Assembly: GCA_002708695.1 (NCBI GenBank)
Contig: PAOZ01000012.1
Location: forward strand, 4,280 to 68,279
Direction: 5' to 3'
Source of the DNA: Methanobacteriota archaeon
GTDB lineage: Archaea; Thermoplasmatota; Poseidoniia; Poseidoniales; Thalassarchaeaceae
Length of the DNA: 64,000 bases
The notes below the pieces were generated by a model. That model ran no database searches, was not told the DNA's origin, and was given only the letters and a program-made list of their open reading frames with translations. The position numbers and the translations under genes were made by a program. Positions 25,306 to 48,775 of this stretch are shown one piece after another. The first letter of the stretch is position 1, and the number at the start of each line of letters is the position of its first letter.

Positions 25306-26229
25306 TTATAATCCTGAAAGAACAGCAATTACTCTAACTTCTCCAGCCATTTCACGATCAATTGATGCTCCATAAATAACATTGCAATTTTCATGAAGGC
25401 CTTTTGTGAAAGACTCGGCAATATGATCAAAATCTCGTAAAGATACTGCGCTTCCTCCTTCAATATGCAATAAACAAGCCGCAGCATTAGCAATGTCTAT
25501 CCTTTCCAAAGGGGCATCGAAAGCAGAACGAAAAATTCGATCCGCGTCAACAGCCATTCCTTCACCAACTAAAACAGTTGATCTGCCAGCTTGTGCGAGA
25601 ATTGTTCTCAAGTCCATCAAATCGAGATTAATTACACCCATTCTGGCTTGAGTGCGAATTATTCCACCAATAAGGCTTGAAACCCAACCACCTCCATCTT
25701 CCCAAGAAATACCTCTCTTCATACTACGTTGAGCTAAAGATGAAAGTGAAATCCCTATAGTAGCATGAGAAGCAGATTCTAAACGAGGTCTGGATAGTCG
25801 TGCCCATCTCATTCGAGATACCTGATCTTCGAAAGGTAAGCCCGAAATAGTAACCACTAATGCACCTGAAGAACGTGCTTGTTCGGCAATCCAAATACTG
25901 GCTCCACCTCCTACTCCGCCACCCAAAACAGTTGAAATCAAAACTAATTCGGCTCTTTCGAACATCTTACTAAAAACATGAGCGAATTCGCTAGTCCAAG
26001 AAGCAGATAATTCAGGCATTATCCCATGATTTACTTCATTAGGACCGATATGAATTGTAGATGCATTAGGATATTCCTCAAAAGAAGAAGAATCTGAATC
26101 TACTAACAATAAATCAGCAGCATTTTCCAAATCTGAATGGGCTTTTTTTGCCCACCGGCATCCAATACCACCTACTCCTACGAGAAGTAAAGCACCATCA
26201 TGCATTTGCTCACTAATCCTCGTCATCAT
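25306..26229 (-). CDS. Divergent FtsZ/tubulin-family protein with degenerate GTP-binding motifs and no C-terminal tail
   Basis: Collinear with FtsZ over both domains: 'LLLVGVGGIGCRWAKKA' (G1), 'ELVLISTVLGGGVGGGASIWIAEQARSSGALVVTISGLPFEDQVSRMRWA' (T4 signature region plus PFxFEG), 'GVINLDLMDLRTIL' (T7 NxDxxD) and '...VRVIAVLSGL' at the end. An alternative start lies at 26205. Confidence 0.7.
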   Translation of the reverse strand: MMTRISEQMHDGALLLVGVGGIGCRWAKKAHSDLENAADLLLVDSDSSSFEEYPNASTIHIGPNEVNHGIMPELSASWTSEFAHVFSKMFERAELVLISTVLGGGVGGGASIWIAEQARSSGALVVTISGLPFEDQVSRMRWARLSRPRLESASHATIGISLSSLAQRSMKRGISWEDGGGWVSSLIGGIIRTQARMGVINLDLMDLRTILAQAGRSTVLVGEGMAVDADRIFRSAFDAPLERIDIANAAACLLHIEGGSAVSLRDFDHIAESFTKGLHENCNVIYGASIDREMAGEVRVIAVLSGL

Positions 26230-26527
26230 AGGTCAAGTAACGTTGATACCTTCGCCGTTCATCTCTGGCCCAAGCATTATCAGGTTCTAATTCCAGTACC
26301 TTTCCATAATATTCAACCGCTTTTTCAAATTCAGACAAATATCGCCCATACAAATGTCCCAAATTAGAAAGTACTGGAATACAAATTGGATCGTCTTCAA
26401 GCATCCTAACTAGTAACTCTTCAGCTTGCCCTAAATCCATAGATTCCATCAAGGATTCTGCGCTATCTAATTGTTCCAACTGAAAATCAGAAAGCCGATA
26501 TATGTTCTTCCATGCGGGGCCCGCCAT
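26213..26527 (-). CDS. Small TPR-repeat protein
   Basis: 'LGQAEELLVRMLEDDPICIPVLSNLGHLYGRYLSEFEKAVEYYGKVLELEPDNAWA' is TPR-like. Its stop overlaps or abuts the FtsZ-like start. The internal ATG at 26527 is preferred over the track start at 26656. Confidence 0.55.
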   Translation of the reverse strand: MAGPAWKNIYRLSDFQLEQLDSAESLMESMDLGQAEELLVRMLEDDPICIPVLSNLGHLYGRYLSEFEKAVEYYGKVLELEPDNAWARDERRRYQRYLTYDDED

Positions 26528-26670
26528 ACTTGCAGGACAGTAAGGACAGGGCTTGAAACATGCGGAGAATTTTGTTGAAAACGAGTAGTTTTCAAGCAAT
26601 AAATTCAATTCAATTTGCAACGAACCTGATGGTACGCTGTCCATCGAAAAAAACAATTCTTAAGCCAATG

Positions 26671-26677
26671 TTAATAT
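26671..26677 (+). promoter_or_regulatory. Candidate archaeal TATA box for the Rieske/cytochrome b operon (leaderless transcript model)
   Basis: TTAATAT is centred about 27 nt upstream of the ATG at 26701, and there is no Shine-Dalgarno motif in between. Confidence 0.3.
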
Positions 26678-26700
26678 CCTCTTTTCCGGTCGCCTACAAC

Positions 26701-27567
26701 ATGGGCATCGACAGTCCGTGGACTGGACCTATTAGACGGGTCTTTGCGCTTTGCCTGCTTCTTACGATTTTAGCAATCAGTCCCTCGTCTGTATATGCCT
26801 GGCCAGGTGGAATCGGAGGCGATCAAGATAACAAAGGAGATGTCGCTATTTCTGGATGTACATGCCATAATGTCGAAGTAAGTGAAAGTGTCACAATAAT
26901 ACTTGACAATGTTCCCACAACTTATACTTCAGGTGAAAACTATGAGATGATGATTCAAATTATTGGAGGGCCAGAATATCACTCTGGAGGGTCAGATTAT
27001 AGTGCAGGATTTTCAATGCGAGTTTCAGCTGGAACCCTAGGTGCAGGAGAAGGCTCTGAAGATTATGTGTCGGCAGCACCGGAAACATTCAATGGCCCTC
27101 CAAGTGAAGATACGCAAACTCTATCGCACACCAAAGCAGGAGGGAATTTAGAATCAAGGTCATGGAATATTATCTGGACAGCACCTGATTCAGAAAGTGG
27201 ACCAGTAATAATTTGGCTTGTAGGAAATTCAGTAAATGGCGATGGAGTCCCTGGTCCTCAAGACATGTGGAATAGACTCTCGGCAGTTATCATTGAAGGC
27301 GAAGATGATGGGAACCGGCGAACTGTCTTTTCAGGGGATGGAAATATTGAGCCTCCTGCCCCTCCCTCTTCCGGTCACACAGACCTCCACCATATGGGTG
27401 CTAAATTTAGAGCTCATTGGCTAGGACTTCTCGGTTTCCTATCTGTAATCTTAGTTCTGATCTTTTGCGGATTTTTCTTACGCTATGGATTTAGTAGACA
27501 TTATGAAGGAAGGAGTAACCTGCTGAAACTTAGAATTAAACATCTTAGAAGGGGTGATCAACTATGA
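26701..27567 (+). CDS. Secreted, C-terminally anchored Reeler-like/'WTAP' domain protein with CxCH motif
   Basis: Signal peptide (VFALCLLLTILAISPSSVYA), 'ISGCTCHN', 'GFSMRVSAGTL', 'WNIIWTAPDSESGPVIIWLVGNSVNGDG', a C-terminal TM helix (WLGLLGFLSVILVLIFCGFFL) and a basic tail. The upstream part of track ORF 26560 is discarded. Confidence 0.6.
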   Translation: MGIDSPWTGPIRRVFALCLLLTILAISPSSVYAWPGGIGGDQDNKGDVAISGCTCHNVEVSESVTIILDNVPTTYTSGENYEMMIQIIGGPEYHSGGSDYSAGFSMRVSAGTLGAGEGSEDYVSAAPETFNGPPSEDTQTLSHTKAGGNLESRSWNIIWTAPDSESGPVIIWLVGNSVNGDGVPGPQDMWNRLSAVIIEGEDDGNRRTVFSGDGNIEPPAPPSSGHTDLHHMGAKFRAHWLGLLGFLSVILVLIFCGFFLRYGFSRHYEGRSNLLKLRIKHLRRGDQL

Positions 27568-28013
27568 ATAATGACAAATTACTCACACTCCTAAGAGAAG
27601 TGAAGAGTGGTACAGTTTCAATTGATGACGCACGTATAGCTCTCGAAGGAGTATCCCTTAGCGAAGAACAATACAAATCAGCCATTGATCATGGTGTTTT
27701 CAATAAACCAAAACCGGGAACTGTTGTCCGAGCTACAATTTCACCTGCAGCAGAATCTGGACTAATGGTTTTATTCTTTGTTTGGGGATTATTTTGGACC
27801 ACATATTGGGCATTTACTCTCACATACGGTTTACTAAATGGGTGGGATCAACAACAACTGGCATTCCATCTTGGAATGACGTTGATGACTCTAATAATGA
27901 TGGGCATAATCTATCTTCGATTCGTGTTGCCTGACCTAGTAGTTGTCAAACATAGAAGAAACAAATATATCCCACCAAAAGATACTAATTCTTGGAAAAA
28001 ATATGATGCATGA
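27564..28013 (+). CDS. Small membrane protein (N-terminal SHOCT-like helix pair plus 2-3 TM helices)
   Basis: ATGA overlap with the upstream gene. 'LLTLLREVKSGTVSIDDARIALEG' is followed by hydrophobic helices. Confidence 0.55.
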   Translation: MNNDKLLTLLREVKSGTVSIDDARIALEGVSLSEEQYKSAIDHGVFNKPKPGTVVRATISPAAESGLMVLFFVWGLFWTTYWAFTLTYGLLNGWDQQQLAFHLGMTLMTLIMMGIIYLRFVLPDLVVVKHRRNKYIPPKDTNSWKKYDA

Positions 28014-28022
28014 GGAGTAAAT

Positions 28023-28880
28023 ATGAGTCGTAAATTCAAACTACGTCCTTCTCCAGGAGAAGTTGACGAGGTTACTGTTGGTGGCTCCAGAATGATTGAT
28101 AGGAGAGATTTTATTCGGCATTCATTCAATAGTGCTGCTGGAGTAATTGCAGCAGCTTCACTTGGTTCAATCGGATTCGCTGCATTACTAATGGGGACTG
28201 CTGAGACTGACGGAGGAGATTCAGCAGTTCGATTTTGGGTGCCTTCTGGTGCAGAAGATAGCGCTTGGTACGGAGATTTACACCTTGAACCAATGACAAA
28301 ATCAGTTTTTGAGGCTGAGGCTGCAAATTCATCCACGGGAATGGCGGGTGCCGCTGGAGTTTGGAGTGGGTTGCCGGTTACTGTAATCTATGTCCCTCAT
28401 GAAGAAAACGATGGTACTGCACCAGTTGAAAACAAGCCACGATTTCAATTTGGTGATGGATACGATCAAGCAGGAGCATATATTGGATATGGGGGAGAAA
28501 TGGAAGAAGATGCTACATATTCAGACCTTGCAATTCATAATAACATGGTGATAGTTTTCAGCAGATGCCCTCACTTATGTTGCATCCCAGGTTGGCAACT
28601 AGTTCCCAACGACTTTACCGCAGATACTTGGTACCCAGGGGGAACTGACTCAGGAGGAAACAAATTATTCTGCATTTGTCATTCAAGTCGATATGACCCT
28701 ACCATGATTGAGAAAAACCAGAACCGTAACCGAACAAATGGTACAATGTTCGAATACTTCGGAATTAAATTGACGGGAGGACCTGCTCCAGTAGGAATGC
28801 CTCTAATACCATTTGAAGTAAATGGAGATGTAATTGAGGCTCTTCCTACATATTTGGACTGGTATACATTTTGCGACTGA
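28023..28880 (+). CDS. Rieske [2Fe-2S] protein with twin-arginine signal
   Basis: TAT motif 'DRRDFIRHS' plus an h-region. Rieske ligand boxes 'CPHLCCIPGW' (CxH) and 'CICHSSRYD' (CxxH). Confidence 0.85.
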   Translation: MSRKFKLRPSPGEVDEVTVGGSRMIDRRDFIRHSFNSAAGVIAAASLGSIGFAALLMGTAETDGGDSAVRFWVPSGAEDSAWYGDLHLEPMTKSVFEAEAANSSTGMAGAAGVWSGLPVTVIYVPHEENDGTAPVENKPRFQFGDGYDQAGAYIGYGGEMEEDATYSDLAIHNNMVIVFSRCPHLCCIPGWQLVPNDFTADTWYPGGTDSGGNKLFCICHSSRYDPTMIEKNQNRNRTNGTMFEYFGIKLTGGPAPVGMPLIPFEVNGDVIEALPTYLDWYTFCD

Positions 28881-28891
28881 GGTGAAAAAAA

Positions 28892-29764
28892 ATGATTGAA
28901 TCAATAGTTCTCTGGATTTTCTTAGCAGTAATCCTAGTCATAGTTGCGTTCACCCTAAGAAAAGAACGCGAGGAAGTCCCTAGAAAGGAGATCTTGAGAG
29001 CAGTTCAAACCACCGCAGGACCAGGAGGAATGGGGCTTCTAGAGAAATCATTCCTTTGGGCATTTTCATGGATGGATACAAGATTCAGAATGCAAGATTA
29101 TTGGGCAATGTCAAGAGATGCATATTACAGTATGCATCGACAAATGCCTCTAACTCATGCAGAAAAATACAAACTAAGAATAATTTGGTATTGGTACCCT
29201 CTATATTGCTTAGGAGGAATTTCATTCCTAGCATTCATTATATTGGTAATCACGGGAACCATTCTTGGAATCTATTATGTTCCAGGAGGGCAAGGAGACC
29301 CTACTCCCGCATATGCTAGCATGGAATTCATCATGACTCAATTGCCATTTGGATATATTATTAGATCCATTCATCATTGGACAACTCACTTCATGGTTGC
29401 AGCAGTTTTCCTCCACATGTGCAGAGTATACTTCACAGGAGCATACCGCAATCCTCGAGAGTTAAACTGGCTAATTGGCGTGGCACTGATGTTTTTCACC
29501 ATCTTCTTTGGATATTCGGGATATCTGCTTCCTTGGGACGCTCTGGCATTTGGAGCTGCTACAATTGGAATCAATATGGCGAATGCAACACCACTAATTG
29601 GACCATGGGTTGCAACTGCAATGTTTGGAGGAAGCACCCTAACATATCAAGCAGTAACAAGAATGTATTTCATCCACGTTTTCATCCTACCAGTTCTAGT
29701 TACAACTTTGATAATCATCCATTTGTTCATTGTATGGGTCCAAGGAGTTGCTGAACCGCACTGA
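28892..29764 (+). CDS. Cytochrome b, N-terminal (b6-like) half
   Basis: 'IRSIHHWTTHFMVAAVFLHMCRVYFTGAYRNPRELNWLIGVALMFFTIFFGYSGYLLPWD' carries the bis-His heme-ligand helices and the PREL/GYxLPW signature. There are additional TM helices. Confidence 0.85.
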   Translation: MIESIVLWIFLAVILVIVAFTLRKEREEVPRKEILRAVQTTAGPGGMGLLEKSFLWAFSWMDTRFRMQDYWAMSRDAYYSMHRQMPLTHAEKYKLRIIWYWYPLYCLGGISFLAFIILVITGTILGIYYVPGGQGDPTPAYASMEFIMTQLPFGYIIRSIHHWTTHFMVAAVFLHMCRVYFTGAYRNPRELNWLIGVALMFFTIFFGYSGYLLPWDALAFGAATIGINMANATPLIGPWVATAMFGGSTLTYQAVTRMYFIHVFILPVLVTTLIIIHLFIVWVQGVAEPH

Positions 29765-29778
29765 TAGGAGGAGATTAA

Positions 29779-32604
29779 ATGGGGATTATCGAAAGATTAG
29801 GACGCGTTGCTGACACCTATGTTGGCGAACGTGATCAACTCATTGAGGCAGAGCAACAACGTCGAAGAGTGTTCACAGGTCATGCTTTCTGGCCACAAGA
29901 GGCACTTAGAGACACAATTATTGCAATGTCTATTCTAATGGTTCTAAGTTTCTACGCTTGGCTAATACCTCCACCTCTACACAGTGCAGCAGATCCATTT
30001 GCACAAGCAGGTTTCGTTTTCCCTGATTGGTATGTTCTTTTCTCATATGGATATCTTCGTTTAGGAGAATATTTACCTCAATTCGATATCCCTCTCCCTA
30101 CAGCAATTGGTAATTTTTTCGGAACTCCAATTATTTCCTGGAATGCAGGATGGTGGGGGGCAGCAATTACTGGAATTCCAGTAACTATTCTTGCTCTTCC
30201 TCCTTTCATTGGAGGTAGAGAAAAACGAGGAGTTGAAGATCCATGGTTTGCTACAGCAGGGATGGTTTATCTTGCTCATGTTTGGTTTATCTCAGTATAT
30301 TCAATCAATATCTTCCTAGAATTATATGGGAAAAATAGAACTGATTTTTGTCAGATGAATTCCCATGCTGGTTTATCCTGTGGGACGAGAGAACCATGGA
30401 TTGCTGAAGTGTTCAATAGTATACCTTGGTTGTTAACAGGAGTATTCATTTTCGCAGTTCTTTATTTTGGAATTCGTTGGTTCTTAGTCCAAACACAAGG
30501 TGCTAGAATAACCCCTAATGGCAATAGAAATGTGGCATTCGGATCACTCCTAGTAGCAGTATTACTCTGTTCTGTAACTTGGCCTGTATACGATAACGGA
30601 TTCTGGGACATGAAGGGATTCGGAGCAATGCAGGATATCGAAGAATTAGAAACTCTAAGAAGCCAACCTAGTGACACATTGGTAGCAATAGAAGAAAGTC
30701 ATCATCATGAACATATGATGGGTCTGTGCTTATCCTATAGCGATTCATCAAAATCCCCTGCTTGGAATGATGATCACTTTGATTCGGGGGCATGGGCATA
30801 CGAAGATTACTGTGTTATGCCCGCAGAAAAATTCTCTGAATGGGGGATTTTCCAACCCACGCAGAATTATCTCATCGATTTCAACGGAGCAAACAACCAC
30901 GTAGACTCAAACAATGGAAGAAATGGATTATTCAACGAATCAATACACCCAGGATCAATCGATGGTTCAGCAGTTGAACACTCATTTTCTGGTGTAATGG
31001 AGGTTCCAAATCTGGGAGTAGACACACTATTCGTGGACGTAACGTGTAATGTAAGAACTACAATTAGAGGTGCTGGAAACCATTCTATTTCTCTAGATGT
31101 CAAGGATATTAGTGGAACTACTCTCTTATCCATGGATTCCTGTGCTACTGAATCATTGAAATTGAGTAGCGGAACATCTTATTCCCTTGACTATTCAATT
31201 ATTACAACCGGATTGGATATCTCTGGAGATGTCATCACAGACGTTTCAATTACTGCATTCCAGCCATTAGTTCTAGATTCAAACGGAGTAGCAGTAGACC
31301 TTTCTGATGAAACTGAATTATTCATGTTAACTGGATCAACGATTTACAATGCAGAACTACTGTCTGATTTCACTATTGAAAACCCAACATTTGAGAAGAA
31401 TCCTAAGAGTTTGGATGCAAAATTAACCTATTCTTTGGTCATCCCATGTTTGGGCGTAGGAGCACTTGTTTTCTTCCTAATGCGAAGTATGGCAAGAGGA
31501 TATGAATATGAAATGAACAAATGCTATGGATGTGACCTCTGTGATGATGCTTGTCCTGTTAGACTATTTAATGCAGGAGATAAGCTGAATATCATTTACA
31601 ATACATGGAACAATGAGGACGATGGAGTTCCTCTTTATTCCTGTCTAACTTGCACTGCCTGTACAAACGCATGCCCTCAGTTAGTAGATTACGATTCATA
31701 TATTGACATTAGGCGAAATCTAATTGTTGGGGGCCCACCTGCGGCTGAAATCCCTCATTCAATTCTTCAAGCAGTTCTACGAGCAGAAGCAGATGACGAA
31801 GCGAATGACCAATTTGTTCCGGTTGAAGAATACCCTATTGATTCATCAGTAGGATACTATCCAGGTTGTGTCGATTATATCGATCAAGAAATGATTTTCA
31901 GTCATGTAAATGAAGGTACAATGAATCTGGGGCAAACTACTGATGCAGCATTTACTTTGTTTGAAGATGCAGAAATTAATGTAGCGTATTTAGGAAGAGA
32001 TTTCCTAAAATGTTGTGGCCATGACCAAAAATGGCAAGGAATGACTGAAGTTTTTGAAAAATTAAAAGCATATAATCAAAAGAAATTGGGACATAGTGGC
32101 ATTGAAACATTGGTTACTTCTTGTGCAGAATGCTTCAGAACATTTGCAATGGATTACGAACTAGATGATCTTAAGGTAATGCATACTACTGAGTTTTTGA
32201 TAGAATCAGGATATGACTTCGATGCAGCTGTTCCAAAAGGTACGACAGTAACATACCACGACCCATGTAGATTAGGACGACAAATGAATCTCTTTGAAGA
32301 ACCGCGTGAATTAGTAAAGCGAATAGAAGGAGTGGATCTAGTAGAGATGGAACATCATGGTGAAGATGCATTATGTTGTGGTGTTTCAAGTATGATGTCA
32401 TGTAACGAGAATTCTAGAGCCCTTCGAATTGAACGGTTTGAAGAAGTTCGAGCAACAGGTGCAGAGATTATGCTAACAACTTGTCCAAAATGCGTTTCTC
32501 ACTTCGAATGTTTGAAATTTGAAGGGGATCCAAGACATGACTTTGAAATCTTAGATGTTGTGTCCTTCTTAGCAAGGCAAATAGAAGAAAAGAAACAAAT
32601 TTAA
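29779..32604 (+). CDS. Fusion: cytochrome b C-terminal (subunit IV-like) membrane domain + large outward-facing domain + TM + HdrD/GlpC-like module (2x[4Fe-4S], 2xCCG)
   Basis: 'FVFPDWYVLFSYGYLRL' is the PEWY-type Qo loop. There are 5 predicted TM helices, a non-hydrophobic domain of about 265 aa with 'ESHHHEHMM', then a TM helix (LVIPCLGVGALVFFLM). Next come 'CYGCDLCDDACP' and 'CLTCTACTNACP', then two CCG domains ('PGC...KCCGHD...SCAEC' and 'DPCRLGR...LCCGVSS...CPKC'). Confidence 0.8.
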   Translation: MGIIERLGRVADTYVGERDQLIEAEQQRRRVFTGHAFWPQEALRDTIIAMSILMVLSFYAWLIPPPLHSAADPFAQAGFVFPDWYVLFSYGYLRLGEYLPQFDIPLPTAIGNFFGTPIISWNAGWWGAAITGIPVTILALPPFIGGREKRGVEDPWFATAGMVYLAHVWFISVYSINIFLELYGKNRTDFCQMNSHAGLSCGTREPWIAEVFNSIPWLLTGVFIFAVLYFGIRWFLVQTQGARITPNGNRNVAFGSLLVAVLLCSVTWPVYDNGFWDMKGFGAMQDIEELETLRSQPSDTLVAIEESHHHEHMMGLCLSYSDSSKSPAWNDDHFDSGAWAYEDYCVMPAEKFSEWGIFQPTQNYLIDFNGANNHVDSNNGRNGLFNESIHPGSIDGSAVEHSFSGVMEVPNLGVDTLFVDVTCNVRTTIRGAGNHSISLDVKDISGTTLLSMDSCATESLKLSSGTSYSLDYSIITTGLDISGDVITDVSITAFQPLVLDSNGVAVDLSDETELFMLTGSTIYNAELLSDFTIENPTFEKNPKSLDAKLTYSLVIPCLGVGALVFFLMRSMARGYEYEMNKCYGCDLCDDACPVRLFNAGDKLNIIYNTWNNEDDGVPLYSCLTCTACTNACPQLVDYDSYIDIRRNLIVGGPPAAEIPHSILQAVLRAEADDEANDQFVPVEEYPIDSSVGYYPGCVDYIDQEMIFSHVNEGTMNLGQTTDAAFTLFEDAEINVAYLGRDFLKCCGHDQKWQGMTEVFEKLKAYNQKKLGHSGIETLVTSCAECFRTFAMDYELDDLKVMHTTEFLIESGYDFDAAVPKGTTVTYHDPCRLGRQMNLFEEPRELVKRIEGVDLVEMEHHGEDALCCGVSSMMSCNENSRALRIERFEEVRATGAEIMLTTCPKCVSHFECLKFEGDPRHDFEILDVVSFLARQIEEKKQI

Positions 32605-32654
32605 TTTGATTAAAAAGCCCAAGATTTGACAACAAAAGGAGAACACTGAAACAC

Positions 32655-32987
32655 ATGTCGACTCGAGAGGAGGTTGCTTATCGTCGTGATGACATGCAAA
32701 AAAGAATCAGAATGGCTCTCAATGCTGCTAAAGCCGAAGAAAGATCGAATATCAAAGGTGGAGAAACAACTGTAGCATTTGTTAACGAGGGGCAGTGTAT
32801 TGGTTGTGATCAATGCACCATTGTATGTGACGATGATGCAATCGAACTATACGATAAAGCAATGGCTAGCCCATTAATACAAGTCGATATAAATCGAAAA
32901 GCGAAGGTGCTTCGTGATCCATGCACAGGGTGTAGATTATGCGTTTTAGCTTGCCCAACTGATGCAATAATAATGATTGACAGATAA
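32655..32987 (+). CDS. 2x[4Fe-4S] ferredoxin-domain protein
   Basis: 'CIGCDQCTIVCDDDAI' and 'CTGCRLCVLACPTDAI'. AGGAG lies 12 nt upstream of the ATG. Confidence 0.8.
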   Translation: MSTREEVAYRRDDMQKRIRMALNAAKAEERSNIKGGETTVAFVNEGQCIGCDQCTIVCDDDAIELYDKAMASPLIQVDINRKAKVLRDPCTGCRLCVLACPTDAIIMIDR

Positions 32988-34313: not shown

Positions 34314-34598
34314 ATGGACGAAGACGAAGCCGATCCAGTTAGGTTCGGAGCAGAATTTGGCCCATATAGATCTAGTAGAACAAGTGGTGTTTCACTTTCG
34401 ACATTCAAAACACTAGTCTGGACTTCAAACATTGGAGGATTAATATTGATGGTAATTGGACTAGAATTGATGATTGTCCAACATGCATATTCTTGGGCAT
34501 TGTTATGCTTTGTTTTTGGAGTAGGAATTGCATTATTCCCCTCAAACTATGAAATAGTTGGCATGGAAGAAAATCAATCTTCTAATGATGATACATAA
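34314..34598 (+). CDS. Small two-TM hypothetical protein
   Basis: ORF with two hydrophobic helices. Its 3' end overlaps the convergent ligase gene by 25 nt. Confidence 0.3.
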   Translation: MDEDEADPVRFGAEFGPYRSSRTSGVSLSTFKTLVWTSNIGGLILMVIGLELMIVQHAYSWALLCFVFGVGIALFPSNYEIVGMEENQSSNDDT

Positions 34599-35788
34599 TC
34601 AAGATTTTCCATCCCCATCGCAATCATTGAGATATTCGCAACTAAAGTATGCAACCATCTTCTATTTATTACTTGTAGAGATGCTTCTTTGGATAAATCA
34701 TGGTCAAGAATGAATTTGGTTGAAGGCGTGTTAAGATTATCTAAAATCCCATGCTTTTCATTAGATCGGAAAAACCATGATACTACTTCACCATTCACTC
34801 CATATCCTACTGGTTCAATAACCGACTGATTAGATGTTAAAAAAGTAGGAACCGCTTCCTGAAGTAAAAAATCTTCAGCATCCTTTCCTCCTTTAGCATA
34901 GGTCAACCTGTTCATCTTTCGTTTTGATAGGTTTAGAATTTCTTCAGGGTCTTCAACACGAATAATTCCTAATCCATATGTTCCTCGATCATTCTTAATG
35001 AATAAAGAGGGTTTGGAATCAATGTTATATTGCTTATATTTTCCAGAAATAAATTCTAAACCCTCATGAATATCTCCTGCGAGTCTTTCCCTACAGAATT
35101 TATCTTCTAAACATCTACCTCGACTAATGAAACCCCAAGGGCCGATAAGCCAAGGATCAATTCCAACTAAATCTCCCAATTCATGAACTAAATCTGAAAC
35201 ATGTTCAAAATGGCGACATTTACTCCTTGAATGCCACCCCATATGACTAGGAGGAAATACATTAACACCAGAGATATTGAGGGGGCCATCACTCAAATCT
35301 GAATTAAGAAAAATAGTGTCAATATTTTCTCCATCGGCGTTCACAAAATCATCTTCGACATTTACATCAACAAAAGATAAATCACCAAATGATGTTGAAA
35401 CCGTTTGAGAATTCAATAAATCTGTACCAACCAATATCTCAATTCCAATTCCTTCAATTAAGGATTTAATGACATGAATATTATCTAGATAGCCAGAATT
35501 ACGAGTATGAGCTTCTGGCCAAAGCAGTAAACATTCAGGTTTATGTTCTAGATTTTCAAACCATCTTTTCAAACCCATAGATAATTTCTCAAGATCATTT
35601 GGATTTAGATTATTAAATCCAGCAGGAAATGCATTGGCATCGACAACAACTGTCTTCCATCCAGCATCTCGAATATCAAATGAACCATATATTGGAAGAG
35701 GGATGTTTTTTCTTTTTTGTTCCAACCATTCAAGGATTATATTTTTCTTATCAAATAATGATGCAAAAGAAGATTGAAACACGTCCAT
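34574..35788 (-). CDS. Carboxylate-amine ligase resembling the rare 'T. ferrooxidans-type' glutamate--cysteine ligase (GshA, PF08886-like)
   Basis: 404 aa. 'IYGSFDIRDAGWKTVVVDANAFPAGFNNL' resembles, from memory, the N-terminal signature of that family. The start codon overlaps the asnB-like stop (TAATG). Confidence 0.5.
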   Translation of the reverse strand: MDVFQSSFASLFDKKNIILEWLEQKRKNIPLPIYGSFDIRDAGWKTVVVDANAFPAGFNNLNPNDLEKLSMGLKRWFENLEHKPECLLLWPEAHTRNSGYLDNIHVIKSLIEGIGIEILVGTDLLNSQTVSTSFGDLSFVDVNVEDDFVNADGENIDTIFLNSDLSDGPLNISGVNVFPPSHMGWHSRSKCRHFEHVSDLVHELGDLVGIDPWLIGPWGFISRGRCLEDKFCRERLAGDIHEGLEFISGKYKQYNIDSKPSLFIKNDRGTYGLGIIRVEDPEEILNLSKRKMNRLTYAKGGKDAEDFLLQEAVPTFLTSNQSVIEPVGYGVNGEVVSWFFRSNEKHGILDNLNTPSTKFILDHDLSKEASLQVINRRWLHTLVANISMIAMGMENLDYVSSLED

Positions 35789-45361: not shown

Positions 45362-48300
45362 CTACTGCTGATTCCAGCCCTGTTGACCCCAACCTTGTTG
45401 TGCGTAGGTATTCGGGTCAACGTGTTGCTGAATTTGCTGGCCTTGAGCTTGTTGATGCGCCCACCATTCTGCCTGCTGTGCAGCCCTCATCTCTTCCTCA
45501 AGACGATAGCGCCTATCTCCAATACGATCAAACAACAAGGCAGTCTGACCTGCATCAATCCTGCCTTTTTCAGATAAATCCTCTACTTCTTTCTCTACTT
45601 CGTGAATTCCTTCATATCCTTCTGCATTATCAATTGAATTTCTAAGTCGTTCGAAATTACTTCTACGACTGTTAGATGATTTCCAAACCAATACAGACAT
45701 AATTGCTCCAATCATAATAATTACGAGAATACCGATTGAAACACCGGTCTGAACCGCAGGATCAATTGTAGAGCCCTGTTGTAGTTGGTCAGGAGTATTG
45801 TCTCCATCTGCATCCAATGGAACATCATTTGCATCAAAAGGATCTGTTCCAACATTGATTTCATCAAAAGTTGTGAACCCATCATTATCATCATCAGGAT
45901 CAACCATATCTGCCCATCCATCACCATCAAAATCTGGACATCCTTTCGTAAATCGAGTTGAATTCCCAGCAACTAGTGGACAATCATCACTTTGTTCAAA
46001 ACCTTGCTGATCAGCCCATCCATCCCCATCAGTATCCGACCATAAAGATGCATCATTTGACCAACCTCCTGGGACAGTAGCATTCCCGTCGATTAAATCT
46101 GCGAAGCCATCTCCATCTGTATCTGGGCATCCAACCAATCCATTTTCAGTAGATTCACCATATTCTTCAGGACAACTATCTGGATCTGTTCCATTTGGAT
46201 TATCACCCCATCCATCGCCATCAGAATCAGCCCATTGACTTGAATCCGAGGGGTAAGAGTCTCCCGAATCTGACCAACCATCACCATCTCGATCAGGACA
46301 AGCAATTCTATCTTCAAAGGATGATCCCCATTCTGTAGGGCAATCATCGACAAGTCCAGATTCAGCAACATCAGGGATACCATCTTCATCAGAATCTGGA
46401 CATCCATTTGATGATTCACCAAAATCTACTGGGCAATCATCTCCATCATTAGAAATCCCATCTCCATCATTATCTGGACATCCTACTTGATCAATGGAAG
46501 AAGTTCCTTGACGAGTAGGGCAATCATCCGAATCAGGGAAACCAGGAGAATCACCAAATCCATCACCATCGGAATCCGAACTTTGATCAGGATTGTCTGG
46601 CATTGCATCAGAAATATCTGACCAGCCATCTCCATCGGAATCGATACAACCTATACGATCTCTAAATGAAGTTCCAGGGGTGTCTGGACAATCGTCAAAT
46701 GGGCCCATTGATTGTTCAAGTTCAACATCTTCGTACCCATCATTATCCCTATCCAAAGGACTGGGGTCAGGCAAATATGCTCCTTCCACCCACATTCCTG
46801 GCCAATGATTCATGCGAGATGAATTCCAAGAAGAAATTCTCCAATTATCTCCCATTCCATCACCATCAGTATCTTTCCATTGTGACGGTTTATTGAAGAA
46901 ATCATCGACTAAATCTGACCAACCATCACTATCTAAATCAGGACAACCAAAGGAATCTTTTGTAGAGGTGCCCCAAACATTTGGACAATCATCAGGAGCT
47001 TCTCCCTCAGTATTATCGCCATATCCATCAGAATCCAAATCTTCCCACTGAGTAGAATTCCCAATGAAAGCATCATTAGAATCCGATTGGCCATCGCCAT
47101 CATCATCCGGACAACCATACACATCCCTTGTGCTTGTCCCATATGCGACAGGACAATAATCGGGAGTAGTGGCACCATCTCGATAGACTCCAATGCCTCC
47201 AGATCTAGAAGCATTCCAAGAAGGATCTCCCCAATTATCACCAAATCCATCTCTATCAAAATCTGACCATTGTGTTGAATCAATTGGGAATCTATCAGTA
47301 CGATCCCCCACGTTATCACCATCAGAATCTATTCCATGTACTACCAAAACAAAATCATTGGAACCACTATGAGATACTGATGAACCGTCAATAGTCAGTT
47401 GAGTTGGGTAATTGAAACCAAAATAGGTTTCATTACCAAGAATTGCAGCACCATATCCTGAATCTCCAGATGTAGTACCATATCCCTTAACCCAGTTCCA
47501 AGAGCCTGTAGAAGAAATTGTAGCAGCGAATACATCATTTGAACCGGTACTGGATAAGCCATAAGGTCCGAAAACTCCTGTGCTGTAGTAATATCCAGTG
47601 ACTGCTATTTCACCAGTATCCCACTCAGTAGAAACTTCATAACAGTAATCTGTACTACTGCCTCCTCCTTTATCGTACCAATTCCAATTTCCAGTTGGTG
47701 AGATTTGAGCCACAAACATATCCCAACTATTCTGATTAGCTTGTAGCCGATTCCCAGAGAATTCAGAATAGCCATAGAACCGGCCACAAACCGTAGCATT
47801 TCCTCCAGCATCTACACTGATTCCCTCAGGATATGTCTCATACGAACTATATCCAAATTCTTCTGCCCAAGAATGAGATCCAGAGGAGGAATATTGAGCA
47901 ATAAATCCCCAATAATCATAACCTCTATTCCCATTATTCAAAGTCATACCCGAGAACTCAACATTATAGGAAAATTCTCCTGTAACATACACTCTCTCTT
48001 GACTGTCAACAGCTACAGAACGCCCTCTCTCATAGTAACTGCCACCAATCCTTTCAACCCAACGCCAATTACCTTGAGAATCAAGACTGGCAAGAAAACC
48101 ATCAGAGTAACAACTTCCACATTGAATAGAACCTGCAGATCCAAAATTCAGAGTTCCGGATGACCAATATCCTGTGATGTATACATTCCCTGACTCTGCA
48201 ATTGCTACTCCATGGGCATAATCACTACTACTTGCTCCAACCGTATTTGACCAAATCCAATTACCAGAAGTATCCAATACTGCGACAAAAATATCGTAAG

Positions 48301-48775
48301 AACCACTAGAGGAATGATAGTCACTACCAAATTGAATTGAACTATAGTAAATACCTGTTATACTGACGTTTCCACCCTTATCAACATCAATATCATAACA
48401 ATAATCAGAACTAGTAGAACCCGCTGTCTTAACCCATAACCAGTCACCAGTTACAGACAATTTTGCAACAAAAATATCAGCAGAATTACTACTTGAAGCA
48501 GGTGTGGAAAGTGTTCCTAAATTCATTGTTTGGTGATAATAACCACAAACATACACATTGCCAAAATCATCAACGTCAATACTTTGGATATTATCTGAAC
48601 CAGAACCTCCTGCATTCTCAAACCAAAGTAATTGAGATGAACTTGCTCTAGGGGAAAAATCAGAATCAATTTCATCCTCAAGCGACACAATACTATCAAA
48701 ATCGTAGGAATTAATCAAAATTGGAGTGAGAAAAAATATCACTAGAACAACACTCAAACGCCGCTTCATGGACAT
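45362..48775 (-). CDS. Large surface protein: signal peptide, beta-propeller-type (SBBP-like) repeats, thrombospondin type-3 Ca-binding repeats, TM anchor, Q/W-rich cytoplasmic tail
   Basis: 1137 aa. It has repeated 'G.SSDY..GV..D..GN.Y.TGY' units and many 'DSDGDGWSD/DTDGDGMGD/DRDGDGWSD' units. A TM helix (ILVIIMIGAIMSVLVW) is followed by a tail ending QQGWGQQGWNQQ. Confidence 0.75.
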   Translation of the reverse strand: MSMKRRLSVVLVIFFLTPILINSYDFDSIVSLEDEIDSDFSPRASSSQLLWFENAGGSGSDNIQSIDVDDFGNVYVCGYYHQTMNLGTLSTPASSSNSADIFVAKLSVTGDWLWVKTAGSTSSDYCYDIDVDKGGNVSITGIYYSSIQFGSDYHSSSGSYDIFVAVLDTSGNWIWSNTVGASSSDYAHGVAIAESGNVYITGYWSSGTLNFGSAGSIQCGSCYSDGFLASLDSQGNWRWVERIGGSYYERGRSVAVDSQERVYVTGEFSYNVEFSGMTLNNGNRGYDYWGFIAQYSSSGSHSWAEEFGYSSYETYPEGISVDAGGNATVCGRFYGYSEFSGNRLQANQNSWDMFVAQISPTGNWNWYDKGGGSSTDYCYEVSTEWDTGEIAVTGYYYSTGVFGPYGLSSTGSNDVFAATISSTGSWNWVKGYGTTSGDSGYGAAILGNETYFGFNYPTQLTIDGSSVSHSGSNDFVLVVHGIDSDGDNVGDRTDRFPIDSTQWSDFDRDGFGDNWGDPSWNASRSGGIGVYRDGATTPDYCPVAYGTSTRDVYGCPDDDGDGQSDSNDAFIGNSTQWEDLDSDGYGDNTEGEAPDDCPNVWGTSTKDSFGCPDLDSDGWSDLVDDFFNKPSQWKDTDGDGMGDNWRISSWNSSRMNHWPGMWVEGAYLPDPSPLDRDNDGYEDVELEQSMGPFDDCPDTPGTSFRDRIGCIDSDGDGWSDISDAMPDNPDQSSDSDGDGFGDSPGFPDSDDCPTRQGTSSIDQVGCPDNDGDGISNDGDDCPVDFGESSNGCPDSDEDGIPDVAESGLVDDCPTEWGSSFEDRIACPDRDGDGWSDSGDSYPSDSSQWADSDGDGWGDNPNGTDPDSCPEEYGESTENGLVGCPDTDGDGFADLIDGNATVPGGWSNDASLWSDTDGDGWADQQGFEQSDDCPLVAGNSTRFTKGCPDFDGDGWADMVDPDDDNDGFTTFDEINVGTDPFDANDVPLDADGDNTPDQLQQGSTIDPAVQTGVSIGILVIIMIGAIMSVLVWKSSNSRRSNFERLRNSIDNAEGYEGIHEVEKEVEDLSEKGRIDAGQTALLFDRIGDRRYRLEEEMRAAQQAEWWAHQQAQGQQIQQHVDPNTYAQQGWGQQGWNQQ

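Follow-up and report, generated by a model that had tools for sequence, protein, structure and literature searches.

The window, a stretch of 64,000 nucleotides from an archaeon of Marine Group IIb, contains an operon whose genes encode, in this order, an anchor protein, a DUF7318-like protein, a Rieske protein, a split cytochrome b6, a 941-aa fusion protein, which is the final membrane subunit, and a 110-aa ferredoxin (Table 1). The archaea of Marine Group II (MGII) are among the most abundant of the surface ocean.

Table 1. Genes of the operon and segments of the fusion protein, with their positions in the window.
Feature	Positions	Strand	Description
Anchor protein	26560..27567	+	Operon gene 1; membrane-anchored, extracytoplasmic
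DUF7318-like small membrane protein, 149 aa	27564..28013	+	Pfam DUF7318 E 1.9e-05, below cut-off
Rieske iron-sulfur protein, 285 aa	28023..28880	+	NCBIfam TIGR01416 Rieske_proteo E 1e-08, aa 163-227
Split b6-type cytochrome b, 290 aa, helices A-D	28892..29764	+	PF00033 E 1.9e-40
Fusion protein, 941 aa	29779..32604	+	Single ORF, no internal stop
Fusion aa 1-184	29779..30330	+	Subunit IV / cytochrome b C-terminal core: n-side N-terminus, helix E, ef loop with PDWY, helices F and G
Fusion aa 185-545	30331..31413	+	MGII-specific insertion: outside Cys loop (C191/C201), TM 219-237 and 252-270, acidic ectodomain
Fusion aa 546-574	31414..31500	+	Last TM helix (549-567), helix H equivalent, and juxtamembrane motif GYEYxMNKCY
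Fusion aa 575-640	31501..31698	+	Ferredoxin-like domain, two CxxCxxCxxxCP; Pfam Fer4_8/9/10 E about 5e-07
Fusion aa 690-915	31846..32523	+	Two complete CCG domains; Pfam CCG E 2.8e-22, two stretches
Soluble 2x[4Fe-4S] ferredoxin, 110 aa	32655..32987	+	Pfam Fer4_21 E 3e-13; NCBIfam rnfB subfamily E 6.4e-13

The anchor protein comprises a signal/TM segment, an ectodomain that forms a beta-sandwich and bears a GCTCH motif, and a C-terminal TM anchor; it matches the NCBIfam domain choice_anch_V (E 3.8e-23). The true start of its gene is probably internal, giving a product of about 271-299 aa; its homologues have 267-299 aa, including one 299-aa protein at 100% identity. The top fold match of its AF2 model (pLDDT 72.5) is the reeler domain of F-spondin (E 4e-5). 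Other lineages have a cupredoxin or a cytochrome c with the same C-terminal anchor at this operon position, and the protein is a candidate p-side electron acceptor. ORFs homologous to the DUF7318-like gene occupy the equivalent position in nearly all of 79 related loci, and the counterpart in one of them (L053, from a 'Methanosarcinales' MAG) matches DUF7318 clearly (E 3.5e-10).

The Rieske protein carries a twin-arginine signal (RRDFIRHS) and the cluster boxes CPHLCC and CICHSS, as read from the translation. It is divergent, since it has no Pfam match and no PDB match by phmmer. Its box II, CICHSSRYD, has the Ser and Tyr typical of high-potential Rieske proteins. The top PDB matches of the split cytochrome b are cytochrome b6 chains (E 3e-42); its four conserved heme-ligand His are present, with the IRSIH...LH and ...H...H blocks kept, and its LYCLGGIS aligns with FYCLGGIT (Cys35) of 1vf5_A. 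The Cys of this CxGG motif is the heme cn-binding residue in b6f. The ferredoxin gene starts 50 nt downstream of the fusion and is also found 3' of the fusion in MGII relatives (70% identity) and in locus L079; its product is a candidate for the cytoplasmic partner of the fusion. This gene is the 'RnfB-like' gene of the MGII literature.

The ATG of the fusion lies 14 nt past the stop of the cytochrome b gene and is directly preceded by a GGAGG Shine-Dalgarno-like box. The first-pass annotation had described one 941-aa ORF with a PEWY-type motif, two CxxCxxCxxxCP motifs and two CCG domains, all of which were located by regular expressions and Pfam: PDWY at aa 82-85, within FPDWYVLFSYGYLRL; the Cys motifs CYGCDLCDDACP at aa 582 and CLTCTACTNACP at aa 622; C697...C745-C746-G...C782xxC785 in the first CCG domain; and C830...C866-C867-G...C902xxC905 in the second. 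The 5 + 1 TM helices that it counted agree with the six Kyte-Doolittle segments (46-64, 127-145, 162-180, 219-237, 252-270 and 549-567), the fifth and sixth of which are separated by a soluble region of about 278 aa (271-548). Its topology, with the N-terminus and the Fe-S module inside, is self-consistent, and conserved Cys pairs occur only in predicted outside segments.

The N-terminal 274 aa have no Pfam match even at E<=10. A phmmer search against the PDB aligned the N-terminus with b6f subunit 4 (7r0w_J) at E 0.016; an N-terminal profile matched residues 232-353 of Rhodobacter cytochrome b at E 4e-13 and PetD at E 5e-7, and intermediate homologues do match PF00032. The proposed relationship to subunit IV and the cytochrome b C-terminus is thus borne out, because the phmmer search, the profile search and the intermediates all point to homology. 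By alignment, helices 1-3 and the last helix correspond to helices E, F, G and H of cytochrome b; helices 4-5 and the ectodomain have been inserted between G and H and are specific to MGII. The earlier reading of all five N-terminal helices as subunit IV therefore holds for helices 1-3 and not for helices 4-5 and the ectodomain.

The insertion is missing from short-form fusions of 540-790 aa in the alignment, and has no Pfam match. Its acidic ectodomain of about 270 aa includes a beta-sandwich at about aa 380-495 (AF2 pLDDT >90), for which Foldseek returned only generic beta-sandwich matches (GOLD, CBM61) at E about 1e-3. Across 24 MGII sequences the pairs C191/C201 and C423/C455 do not vary, and C317 and C345 co-occur. 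We propose that this 360-aa insertion is an extracytoplasmic add-on, dispensable for the electron wire discussed below.

The last helix aligns with helix four of the short-form fusions and, as helix H, would bring the chain back into the cytoplasm. In the motif that follows, GYEYxLNxCY, the Y, L/M, N, C and Y are invariant. The ferredoxin-like domain, modelled with low AF2 confidence (pLDDT 30-50), is predicted to hold two cubane [4Fe-4S] clusters; in the alignment its motifs fall on the Cys that bind clusters D3/D4 in EtfD 9ojn_A (ligand numbering from PMC13083937). The CCG domains are predicted to hold two non-cubane Fe-S clusters of HdrB/HdrD type, and the C-terminal fold matches EtfD 9ojn (E 4.5e-14), LutA (1.2e-10) and HdrB (1e-7 to 4e-6) in Foldseek.

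This pattern lies far outside what chance would give. Across 45 sequences, with identities as low as 32%, none of the 18 cluster-ligand Cys varies, the ten of the CCG domains included, and C875 and C911 are invariant too. The fusion has 454 homologues, the best 120 of which have 917-958 aa, 69-91% identity and 100% query coverage; hundreds of homologues of 917-958 aa occur in marine metagenomes, and a variant at 70% identity is found verbatim, in the same operon, in 137 data blocks. That a frameshift, a chimeric assembly or a mis-called ORF joined two genes is hence a negligible prospect. Split versions do exist in MGIII, but there the break falls at another place, separating Fer4 from CCG with a clean ATGA overlap, whereas full-length fusions come from hundreds of independent assemblies (NCBI, ENA, JGI, Tara, Logan) and few parts of the protein are as well conserved as the junction, helix H with GYEYxMNKCY. 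An assembly artefact is effectively refuted by these homologues and this junction. The covalent join of a subunit IV-like module with an HdrD-type 2x[4Fe-4S] and 2xCCG module, beside the Rieske and split cytochrome b6 genes, is genuine, as had been claimed.

The survey of homologues, a Rosetta-stone comparison over 79 GTDB loci, found both fused and split genes. The full fusion occurs in MGII and several Thermoplasmata, and the short forms in other Thermoplasmatota. MGIII and others have subunit IV joined to Fer4, followed by a separate adjacent CCG gene with an ATGA stop/start overlap; some loci (L008, L014, L056) have subunit IV with Fer4 and no CCG gene nearby, and Halobacteriales and Thermoplasmatales have subunit IV alone. 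Downstream of the arm, as we call the Fe-S module, MGIII encode a polyferredoxin or a fusion of flavodoxin with 2[4Fe-4S], and other Thermoplasmata encode HdrA-like FAD/Fe-S proteins or HdrC-HdrB-HdrA. The nearest unfused relatives of the module (47-50% identity) are HdrD-like proteins of Methanoperedens, in hdrD-hdrC-hdrB-hdrA-mvhD clusters. Since fused and split versions both occur among relatives, the comparison gives strong evidence that the module is functionally associated with the Rieske/cytochrome b complex. In L053, whose operon is otherwise identical, subunit IV is fused to an FrhB/FdhB module, a known F420H2/ferredoxin-oxidising input module; this fusion speaks for the input direction.

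The arm co-occurs with the b6-type xLGG motif of cytochrome b, with the heme cn Cys present in MGII. All arm-bearing loci with a readable cytochrome b keep xxGG, and about 30 have C[LF]GG; 16 of the 17 complete loci with subunit IV only are without the heme cn Cys, and 13 have xLGS, in a correlation among phylogenetically non-independent loci. The largest MGIII clade (27 loci) keeps the arm and has Ser in place of this Cys, so a covalent heme cn is not obligatory for the arm. In the fusion, Arg44-Asp45 aligns with the Qi-site pair Lys251/Asp252 of Rhodobacter cytochrome b. The first-pass annotation had suggested that the arm serves instead of a Qi-site quinone; this replacement is unsupported, as both the Cys35 equivalent of the partner b6 and the Arg-Asp pair of Qi type are retained.

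The complex shares with the b6f and Firmicute-type b6c complexes the split cytochrome b, the four His ligands, the CxGG Cys, a subunit IV that bears a PEWY-type motif and begins on the n-side, and an adjacent Rieske gene. It differs from them in that its subunit IV adds helix H and a 370-aa Fe-S module and has the bc1 Qi-type Arg-Asp pair, that the operon is without genes for cytochrome f and PetG/L/M/N and has a reeler-like beta-sandwich protein as its p-side gene, and that it is archaeal and respiratory, not photosynthetic. The soluble module itself, with two cubane motifs and two CCG domains, is the one found on the cytoplasmic face of the di-heme membrane cytochrome in HdrDE, DsrMK, TmcBC and HmcEF. 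In MGII, however, the membrane partner is a Rieske-type cytochrome b6/subunit IV and not of the NarI/HdrE/DsrM type, the link is covalent, all NCBIfam equivalog scores are far below cut-offs and there is no known disulfide substrate.

EtfD of M. smegmatis (9ojn) and EMO of Syntrophus aciditrophicus resemble the fusion in running, in one chain, from a TM domain to two cubanes and two CCG domains. They are ETF:(methyl)menaquinone oxidoreductases in which the CCG clusters are the electron entry towards quinone. Their TM domain is heme-binding; the TM part of the fusion is not, being the cytochrome b half that lacks heme, and must pair with cytochrome b6. In CCG domain 1 the fusion has CC, whereas a single Cys in EtfD gives a linear [3Fe-4S] cluster (ligands from PMC13083937), and invariant Glu784 replaces His583 of EtfD. 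In addition, no ETF genes lie near the fusion. Anammox Rieske/cytochrome b complexes reportedly have extra NAD(P) oxidoreductase and multiheme subunits (Kartal et al. 2013), cytoplasmic redox modules through which, according to the proposal, the low-potential chain communicates with soluble carriers; these complexes are bacterial and use FAD/NAD-binding and multiheme c proteins as separate subunits, in contrast to the Fer4 and CCG of MGII.

In Ca. Angelarchaeales, another order of the same phylum, Thermoplasmatota, hdrD-like and rnfB-like genes beside complex III have been noted in two sentences as 'proximal genes' (PMC9038741), with the same gene neighbourhood and the idea that reduced ferredoxin enters at complex III. 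That work has no subunit IV fusion, domain analysis, distribution or heme cn link, and the MGII form adds the 360-aa insertion. The literature search found no description of a subunit IV-Fe-S/CCG fusion or of such a covalent link, in line with the earlier remark that no CCG protein was known to be wired covalently to a Rieske/cytochrome b core.

The fusion is the subunit IV, with helices E-H, of a Marine Group IIb Rieske/cytochrome b complex of b6 type, and we propose, with a probability of about 0.5, that its Fe-S arm is an inward ferredoxin port. The arm would be a wire linking cytoplasmic one-electron carriers with the low-potential end of the complex. The ferredoxin-like domain begins 14 residues past helix H and is therefore expected at the n-side (cytoplasmic) face, where it would lie beside heme bn and the heme cn-Qi pocket, with the CCG domains distal. 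The arrangement would resemble that of EtfD, EMO and HdrDE, namely heme b, cubane, cubane, non-cubane, non-cubane and donor. No sequence feature gives the direction, and inward is the likeliest: reduced ferredoxin, the co-transcribed 110-aa 2[4Fe-4S] protein, would pass electrons through the arm to heme cn/bn, quinone would be reduced at Qi with protons taken up from the cytoplasm, and the resulting quinol would be re-oxidised at Qo. Ferredoxin-type carriers thus probably donate electrons directly to complex III via the arm. Diamond et al. (2022, PMC9038741) independently suggested that hdrD/rnfB genes close to complex III serve the entry of ferredoxin electrons, and MGII have an orphan RnfB and no Rnf complex (Tully et al., PMC6336850). 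The partner suggested by the first-pass annotation, a disulfide-type or organic substrate, is not favoured: the conserved neighbours are of ferredoxin, flavodoxin or HdrA type and include no evident enzyme for thiols/disulfides or organic substrates, which makes a protein electron carrier the likelier partner.

The reverse direction, which the first-pass annotation had named first, is unlikely. The low-potential electron, after Qo and passage from bL to bH/cn, would then leave via the arm to ferredoxin, flavodoxin or a disulfide, replacing or competing with quinone reduction at Qi, in a quinol-driven bifurcation that yields a low-potential reductant, of the kind proposed for some anammox Rieske/cytochrome b complexes. 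The architecture is direction-symmetric, the classical CCG/cytochrome b pairs HdrDE and DsrMK run from quinol to a cytoplasmic disulfide, and the HdrA-like and HdrCBA genes downstream in some relatives hint at bifurcation-type chemistry there. However, the Qi-site features are kept, the FrhB fusion of L053 is an input-type module, and ferredoxin reduction from heme bH would be strongly uphill, and hence unlikely, if the Rieske protein is, as its motif suggests, of high potential. MGII are moreover described as aerobic (photo)heterotrophs that generate, and do not need, reduced ferredoxin (PMC6336850). Docking of a flavoprotein, in the manner of EtfD/EMO or GlpC/LutA, is similarly doubtful. Electrons from ETF, or from a different dehydrogenase flavoprotein in solution, would enter directly at the CCG end, the complex would double as an ETF:quinone oxidoreductase for fatty-acid and amino-acid oxidation, and the small ferredoxin would be incidental. 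M. smegmatis EtfD is the top match to the C-terminal module by phmmer (E 3.6e-24) as by Foldseek, the CCG clusters of EtfD/EMO pass ETF electrons via two cubanes to heme b and menaquinone, and fatty-acid and protein degradation are predicted for MGII (PMC6336850). Yet genes for ETF or for acyl-CoA dehydrogenase are absent from the operon and from the annotated parts of the 64-kb window, the gene conserved beside the arm is in every case of ferredoxin, flavodoxin or HdrA type, the Methanoperedens relatives are not ETF-linked, and the full CC pair of CCG domain 1 is not shared by mycobacterial EtfD.

That same complete CC in both CCG motifs makes a thiol/disulfide active site possible, and the CCG pair could, like HdrB/HdrD, reduce or form a disulfide, in a protein or in a molecule of low molecular weight, with cytochrome b6 providing the coupling to the quinone pool. 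The motifs are invariant, as are C875 and C911, the top NCBIfam match is thiol:fumarate reductase TfrB (E 3.8e-31), and a gene for glutamate-cysteine ligase is found at a distance of 2 kb (34574-35788). We nevertheless judge this decidedly improbable: all equivalog scores are far under the cut-offs (108 vs 385 bits for TfrB, 33 vs 400 bits for DsrK), no DsrC-like gene is present in the operon, MGII are not known to synthesise CoM/CoB, the gshA adjacency is not kept in the 70%-identity relative, and the CCG clusters of EMO and EtfD are purely electron-transferring.

If the inward ferredoxin port is the correct reading, the complex is at once a respiratory ferredoxin-oxidising entry point and a quinol oxidase. 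In b6f, heme cn faces the n-side and has been proposed to receive electrons from ferredoxin during cyclic flow (reviewed in PMC7908018); the MGII complex would be the hard-wired counterpart of that proposed ferredoxin:plastoquinone route.

The fusion gene, which joins a subunit IV (SUIV) part to an Fe-S arm of two cubane-type [4Fe-4S] motifs and two CCG domains, lies in a row of six plus-strand genes (26560-32987), directly downstream of the Rieske and cytochrome b6 genes, an order that is the same in 79 related loci. The ORF is intact in translation (941 aa and a stop codon) and starts 14 nt past the cytochrome b stop codon, with a GGAGG box ahead. Regular expressions located PDWY at residues 82-85, the cubane-type motifs CYGCDLCDDACP at residue 582 and CLTCTACTNACP at residue 622, and two complete CCG motifs (C697...C745C746G...C782xxC785 and C830...C866C867G...C902xxC905), and hydropathy gave six hydrophobic segments (46-64, 127-145, 162-180, 219-237, 252-270, and 549-567). 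All the elements that the first-pass annotation had listed for this ORF were borne out by this pass.

A search with the full protein retrieved 454 homologues, and the best 120 of these 454, from NCBI, ENA, JGI, Tara, and Logan assemblies, have 917-958 aa, 100% query cover, and 69-91% identity. One variant with 70% identity occurs verbatim in 137 data blocks and has the same six-gene operon, including the 110-aa ferredoxin. Given these full-length copies across many assemblies, an artefact, in which the fusion would not be a real single gene, has a negligible probability. A scan of the operon for sigma-70 promoters and intrinsic terminators, models that are not applicable to an archaeon, gave no more matches than shuffled sequences.

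Genes and loci of the window and of related genomes (Lnnn, numbered loci from the genome scans)
Feature	Position	Strand	Details
TPR-like ORF	26213-26656	-	
Membrane-anchored extracytoplasmic protein	26560-27567	+	NCBIfam choice-of-anchor V domain, E 3.8e-23
DUF7318-like small membrane protein	27564-28013	+	
Rieske protein	28023-28880	+	TIGR01416 E 1e-08; twin-arginine signal RRDFIRHS; boxes CPHLCC, CICHSS
Split cytochrome b	28892-29764	+	PF00033 E 1.9e-40
Fusion	29779-32604	+	SUIV and Fe-S arm
Soluble 110-aa 2x[4Fe-4S] ferredoxin	32655-32987	+	rnfB subfamily E 6.4e-13
GshA	34574-35788	-	PF08886 E 2.5e-83
Tubulin/FtsZ-family protein	25306-26229	-	FtsZ_C E 3.4e-15; Tubulin E 2.8e-12
1137-aa protein	45362-48775		SBBP beta-propeller repeats
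Giant 3015-aa ORF	53513-62560	-	Transglutaminase-core, Big_3_5, MG2, CarboxypepD_reg domains
SUIV::FrhB/FdhB, 531-aa ORF	L053:5965-7560	+	PF00032, PF04422, PF04432; 'Methanosarcinales' MAG
Operon with SUIV::FrhB	L053:3650-7560		Cytochrome c - DUF7318 - Rieske - cytochrome b6 (CLGG) - SUIV::FrhB
Genes after a short-form fusion	L001:7629-12072		HdrC-like, HdrB-like, 1010-aa HdrA-like
hdrD-hdrC-hdrB-hdrA-mvhD-type neighbourhood	L080:6001-11948		
Long cytochrome b6 ORF	L002:2364-4319		Start uncurated
Long cytochrome b6 ORF	L009:2625-5846		Start uncurated

Pfam at E<=10 gave no match for the N-terminal 274 aa of the fusion, PF00032 included, so homology with SUIV was established by profile. Direct phmmer against PDB returned a single match, the b6f subunit 4 (7r0w_J, E 0.016), over helix E and the PEWY loop. 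An exhaustive search with residues 1-274 yielded 95 cluster representatives, whose distant members (30-40% identity) match PF00032, up to E 1e-12 for the short-form fusion P0181, and most of these matching members also have Fer4 and CCG domains. A 10-sequence profile of residues 10-185 aligned with residues 232-353 of Rhodobacter cytochrome b (E 4e-13) and with PetD chains (E 5e-7 to 1e-5), the alignment that the first-pass annotation had proposed as a check. At the sequence level, the N-terminal part is thus assigned to the C-terminal half of cytochrome b, or subunit IV (PF00032 family). The P, D, W, and Y of PDWY are invariant in fused, split, and unfused relatives. The Qi site, also singled out for inspection, retains Arg44-Asp45 opposite Lys251-Asp252 of Rhodobacter cytochrome b in the profile alignment, a pair that has been implicated in proton and electron transfer at this site (compare the title of PMC5001787).

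In other Thermoplasmatota, aligned short-form fusions of 540-790 aa present the basic design, with helices E, F, and G and, as the counterpart of cytochrome b helix H, a fourth helix, after which a strongly conserved juxtamembrane motif, GYEYxLNxCY, runs directly into the first cluster motif. The protein of Marine Group II (MGII), to which the window belongs, has a 360-aa insertion between helices G and H, which comprises an outside loop with the invariant Cys pair C191/C201, two extra TM helices, and an acidic ectodomain (12 K+R against 44 D+E). Within the ectodomain, AF2 confidently predicts a beta-sandwich (pLDDT >90); two further Cys pairs are located in this domain, C423/C455, which is invariant, and C317/C345, whose members co-occur. 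Pfam at E<=10 gave no match for the 280-aa middle part, and Foldseek on the whole model related the insertion to generic beta-sandwiches only (GOLD, CBM61; E about 1e-3), nothing informative. Since the insertion is made of two TM helices and an outside domain, the topology would be preserved. An N-terminus on the n-side (cytoplasmic side) is consistent with the hydropathy, with the conserved Cys pairs, which are confined to predicted outside parts, and with a weak positive-inside bias: four inside flanks hold 9 K+R, against 7 in six outside flanks. The Fe-S ligands all fall within the part predicted to be inside.

In the C-terminal part, Pfam detected CCG in two stretches (E 2.8e-22) and Fer4_8/9/10 (about 5e-07), and the best PDB sequence match was EtfD of M. 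smegmatis (9ojn_A, phmmer E 3.6e-24), an ETF:menaquinone oxidoreductase. EtfD was also the top Foldseek match (9ojn; E 4.5e-14, 27% identity, 348 columns) of the AF2 model, which has a mean pLDDT of 75, with 80-90 in the CCG domains and only 30-50 in the ferredoxin-like domain; LutA and HdrB from three Hdr structures were further best fold matches. Racemase matches, due to the Rossmann-like fold of the CCG domains, were set aside. The NCBIfam equivalogs TfrB, LdhH, GlpC, GlcF, DsrK, TmcB, and HmcF all scored far below their curated cut-offs (TfrB 108 against 385 bits, LdhH 77 against 800, GlpC 44 against 278, and DsrK 33 against 400). These matches place the module in the HdrD/CCG superfamily (PF02754 and Fer4) and identify it with none of the named enzymes. 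Databases label proteins of the fusion type 'Fe-S oxidoreductase' or 'heterodisulfide reductase subunit D'. Across 45 sequences, with identity as low as 32%, none of the 18 ligand Cys varies, nor does C875 or C911. The structural interpretation in the first-pass annotation, a subunit IV-like part joined to a cytoplasmic HdrD-type module, was right.

The fusion shares with HdrD-type CCG proteins two CxxCxxCxxxCP motifs followed by two CXnCCGXmCXXC motifs, but its partner is a Rieske-type cytochrome b6 (PF00033), not one of the NarI/HdrE/DsrM type, and its TM part is cytochrome b C-terminal-like. The fold of the soluble module is shared with EtfD and EMO, whereas the TM domain resembles SUIV, the cytochrome b half without hemes, and is not heme b-binding. 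In mycobacterial EtfD, the first CCG domain has a single Cys and binds a linear [3Fe-4S] cluster (PMC13083937); in contrast, both CC pairs are complete in the fusion, and His583 of EtfD is replaced by an invariant Glu784.

The best PDB matches of the window cytochrome b were cytochrome b6 chains (E 3e-42). The alignment starts at b6 residue 33 with LYCLGGIS opposite FYCLGGIT (1vf5_A). The protein thus retains the four His ligands and, as the CxGG Cys of helix A, the residue to which heme cn is bound in b6f; by alignment, it is assigned to the b6 type. The Rieske protein had no match in PDB by phmmer, and its assignment comes from NCBIfam and motifs. While the CxGG Cys is shared with b6f, neither cytochrome f nor PetG/L/M/N is present in the operon, where Pfam and NCBIfam found no cytochrome c/f domain; the first gene here is of the choice-of-anchor V/reeler-like type instead. 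This first gene probably encodes the acceptor on the p-side (outside), an analogue of cytochrome c1/f.

Among lineages (window, L016-L076), the first gene keeps its C-terminal TM anchor (W[IV]G[LV]I...RYGES) with the ectodomain swapped. MGII, Marine Group III (MGIII), and some Thermoplasmata have a choice-of-anchor V/reeler-like beta-sandwich with a conserved GCxCH (minimally CH), for which a single-Cys heme as cofactor is one guess; a cupredoxin whose copper site reads YWCxxPGHxxxGM is present in L058, L076, L070, and L067, and a cytochrome c takes this position in L053. In the window, the gene as mechanically listed (335 aa) overlaps the minus-strand TPR-like ORF by about 100 nt. The homologues have 267-299 aa, which points to a true start inside the listed ORF (near 26668-26700), and the overlap is probably spurious.

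One genome per GTDB species was scanned with an SUIV+Fer4 profile, and the window proteins were then searched against the ORFs of the loci. The scan supplied the taxonomy, of which the names of the cluster members had given next to none. The 79 loci found are all archaeal, bar two mis-binned-looking contigs, and share a single operon skeleton: anchor protein, DUF7318, Rieske, cytochrome b6, and SUIV onward. SUIV, Fer4, and CCG form a single ORF in MGII (L079) and in about a dozen Thermoplasmata MAGs, while in about 42 loci, mostly MGIII, CCG is encoded by its own gene (about 295 aa) after SUIV+Fer4, and the clean ATGA stop/start overlap between the two shows the gene boundary to be real. L008, L014, and L056 have SUIV+Fer4 without an adjoining CCG gene; Halobacteriales (including the cultured Halospeciosus flavus), Thermoplasmatales, and Hydrothermarchaeota have SUIV alone; and in L053 SUIV is fused to FrhB/FdhB. 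The survey of homologues that the first-pass annotation had suggested thus found both fused and split states, and this fusion/fission pattern strongly indicates that the Fe-S module works as a component of the complex.

L023 and L041, labelled Nitrosomonadaceae and Chloroflexota, carry the exact MGIII operon, with the same gene order and lengths, and are most likely mis-binned archaeal contigs rather than bacterial occurrences. In several Thermoplasmata MAGs (L002-L007, L009, L011, L012, and L015), the cytochrome b6 ORF, with uncurated start, has 600-1070 aa, with an N-terminal plastocyanin-like cupredoxin (PF00127) and Ig domain or four Big_5 Ig-like repeats, and phmmer found no separate Rieske ORF in these loci.

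Among complete SUIV-only loci with a readable helix-A motif in the adjacent cytochrome b, 16 of 17 are without the Cys, and 13 have xLGS. All arm-bearing loci with a readable cytochrome b keep xxGG, which is C[LF]GG in about 30, MGII included. The main MGIII clade (L016-L044) has SLGG (WYPFYSLGG) in 27 loci, with Ser in place of the heme cn Cys, and one further locus has YLGG; a second group labelled MGIII/MGII (L022, L024, L045-L049) keeps CLGG. By these counts, the arm goes with the b6f-type heme cn pocket, in a correlation that is not phylogenetically independent. The 27 Ser-bearing loci have nonetheless kept SUIV+Fer4 together with the separate CCG gene and a gene for a polyferredoxin or flavodoxin-ferredoxin; the covalent heme cn Cys is thus not obligatory for the arm.

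In most lineages, a redox-carrier gene is located 3' of the arm. It encodes the 110-aa ferredoxin in MGII, a 283-aa polyferredoxin or a 336-aa flavodoxin+2[4Fe-4S] protein in MGIII, and two HdrA-like FAD/Fe-S proteins in L002-L007; in L001, HdrC-, HdrB-, and HdrA-like genes follow a short-form fusion. The closest unfused relatives of the module are HdrD-like proteins of Methanoperedens (47-50% identity), in hdrD-hdrC-hdrB-hdrA-mvhD clusters (L080). Together, these relatives and the L001 neighbours hint at an HdrD associated with HdrABC as the source of the arm, and some complexes may couple to flavin-based bifurcation.

In HdrDE, EtfD, and EMO, the order of carriers is membrane heme b, two cubane clusters, two CCG clusters, and substrate or donor. 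The same linear order follows helix H in the fusion, which would put the cubane clusters at the n-side surface, and the arm may act as a wire that connects cytoplasmic carriers with the heme bn/cn-Qi region. The favoured direction would be inward: ferredoxin would be oxidised, its electrons would pass via the arm to the complex, and quinone would be reduced at Qi and re-oxidised at Qo, with energy conserved as a redox loop. Several points favour inward flow: the low potential of the partner carriers, the input-type nature of the FrhB module in L053, the retention of the Qi features, and the description of MGII as heterotrophs with an aerobic life, an orphan RnfB, and no Rnf complex (PMC6336850). 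The window Rieske box II, CICHSSRYD, points the same way: its Ser and Tyr are typical of high-potential centres, so ferredoxin reduction from heme bH would be uphill. To this n-side wire with inward ferredoxin oxidation we give a probability of about 0.5; the observations consist of the parts list and its conservation, while proximity, direction, and partner are inferred.

Electrons could instead leave the complex through the arm, but with ferredoxin reduction uphill such an exit port is improbable. We consider equally improbable the direct docking of ETF or another flavoprotein at the arm, as in EtfD, given that neither the operon nor the annotated ORFs of the 64-kb window include ETF genes. 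Somewhat less probable still is a catalytic thiol/disulfide site at the CCG clusters: the gshA gene 2 kb downstream suggests gamma-glutamylcysteine as a thiol, yet its adjacency is not conserved in the MGII relative with 70% identity. The first-pass annotation had proposed that electrons of the low-potential chain are exchanged with a cytoplasmic disulfide-type or organic substrate instead of a Qi-site quinone. The cytoplasmic link is upheld by the fusion/split pattern and the redox-carrier neighbours; the replacement of Qi is not supported, the Qi features being retained, and neither is the proposed substrate, the neighbours being redox carriers.

Extending the inward wire to the other loci, we tentatively suggest that Thermoplasmatota (MGII, MGIII, and relatives) may hold an undescribed Rieske/b6 class in which the SUIV C-terminus would serve as a modular n-side socket for exchangeable input modules, Fer4 only, Fer4+CCG, or FrhB, with reduced ferredoxin or F420H2 oxidised directly via heme cn/bn. 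Were this so, the long-debated route from ferredoxin through heme cn to quinone would have its first hard-wired case, uptake of electrons from an n-side Fe-S wire would suggest itself as the original function of heme cn, and a large share of respiratory electron input in the most abundant planktonic Euryarchaeota of the ocean would bypass complex I.

Rieske/cytochrome b complexes are regarded as closed quinol:acceptor oxidoreductases, in which the low-potential chain only recycles electrons to quinone. A four-cluster cytoplasmic arm would open this chain to soluble carriers, and it would provide a model, natural and fixed in the genome, of the disputed ferredoxin:quinone reductase activity of b6f and of heme cn function. 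Tully (2019) described MGII with cytochrome b and Rieske, no canonical bc1, an MGII-specific complex III, and an orphan RnfB (PMC6336850), and Diamond et al. (2022) noted, in Ca. Angelarchaeales, hdrD- and rnfB-like genes near complex III and suggested an entry point for reduced ferredoxin (PMC9038741); neither describes an SUIV fusion, its distribution, a heme cn link, or an FrhB variant. In the openly searchable literature, no description of an SUIV-HdrD or SUIV-FrhB fusion was found. What is new here is a Rieske/cytochrome b6 complex with a covalent HdrD-type n-side arm in a globally abundant archaeal group, which possibly explains the 'MGII-specific complex III' and the orphan RnfB of MGII genomics. 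The partners of HdrD-type CCG proteins are extended from NarI-type cytochromes to the Rieske/cytochrome b family. The fusion would surprise specialists; it makes the ferredoxin-to-heme cn question directly testable, and evolutionary and biochemical predictions that can be tested follow from the fused/split/absent series and the FrhB variant. Given the global abundance of these organisms, the flux through the enzyme in the remineralisation of surface-ocean carbon is probably sizeable.

The remaining window encodes archaeal RNA polymerase subunits and other housekeeping genes, and close homologues are named Candidatus Thalassarchaeaceae, Poseidoniales, or Thermoplasmatota, which assigns the window to an archaeon of Marine Group IIb. 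The giant 3015-aa ORF probably encodes a surface protein, and the window also holds the 1137-aa beta-propeller protein. The FtsZ-family gene is located just upstream of the operon, an adjacency kept in the relative with 70% identity (L083).
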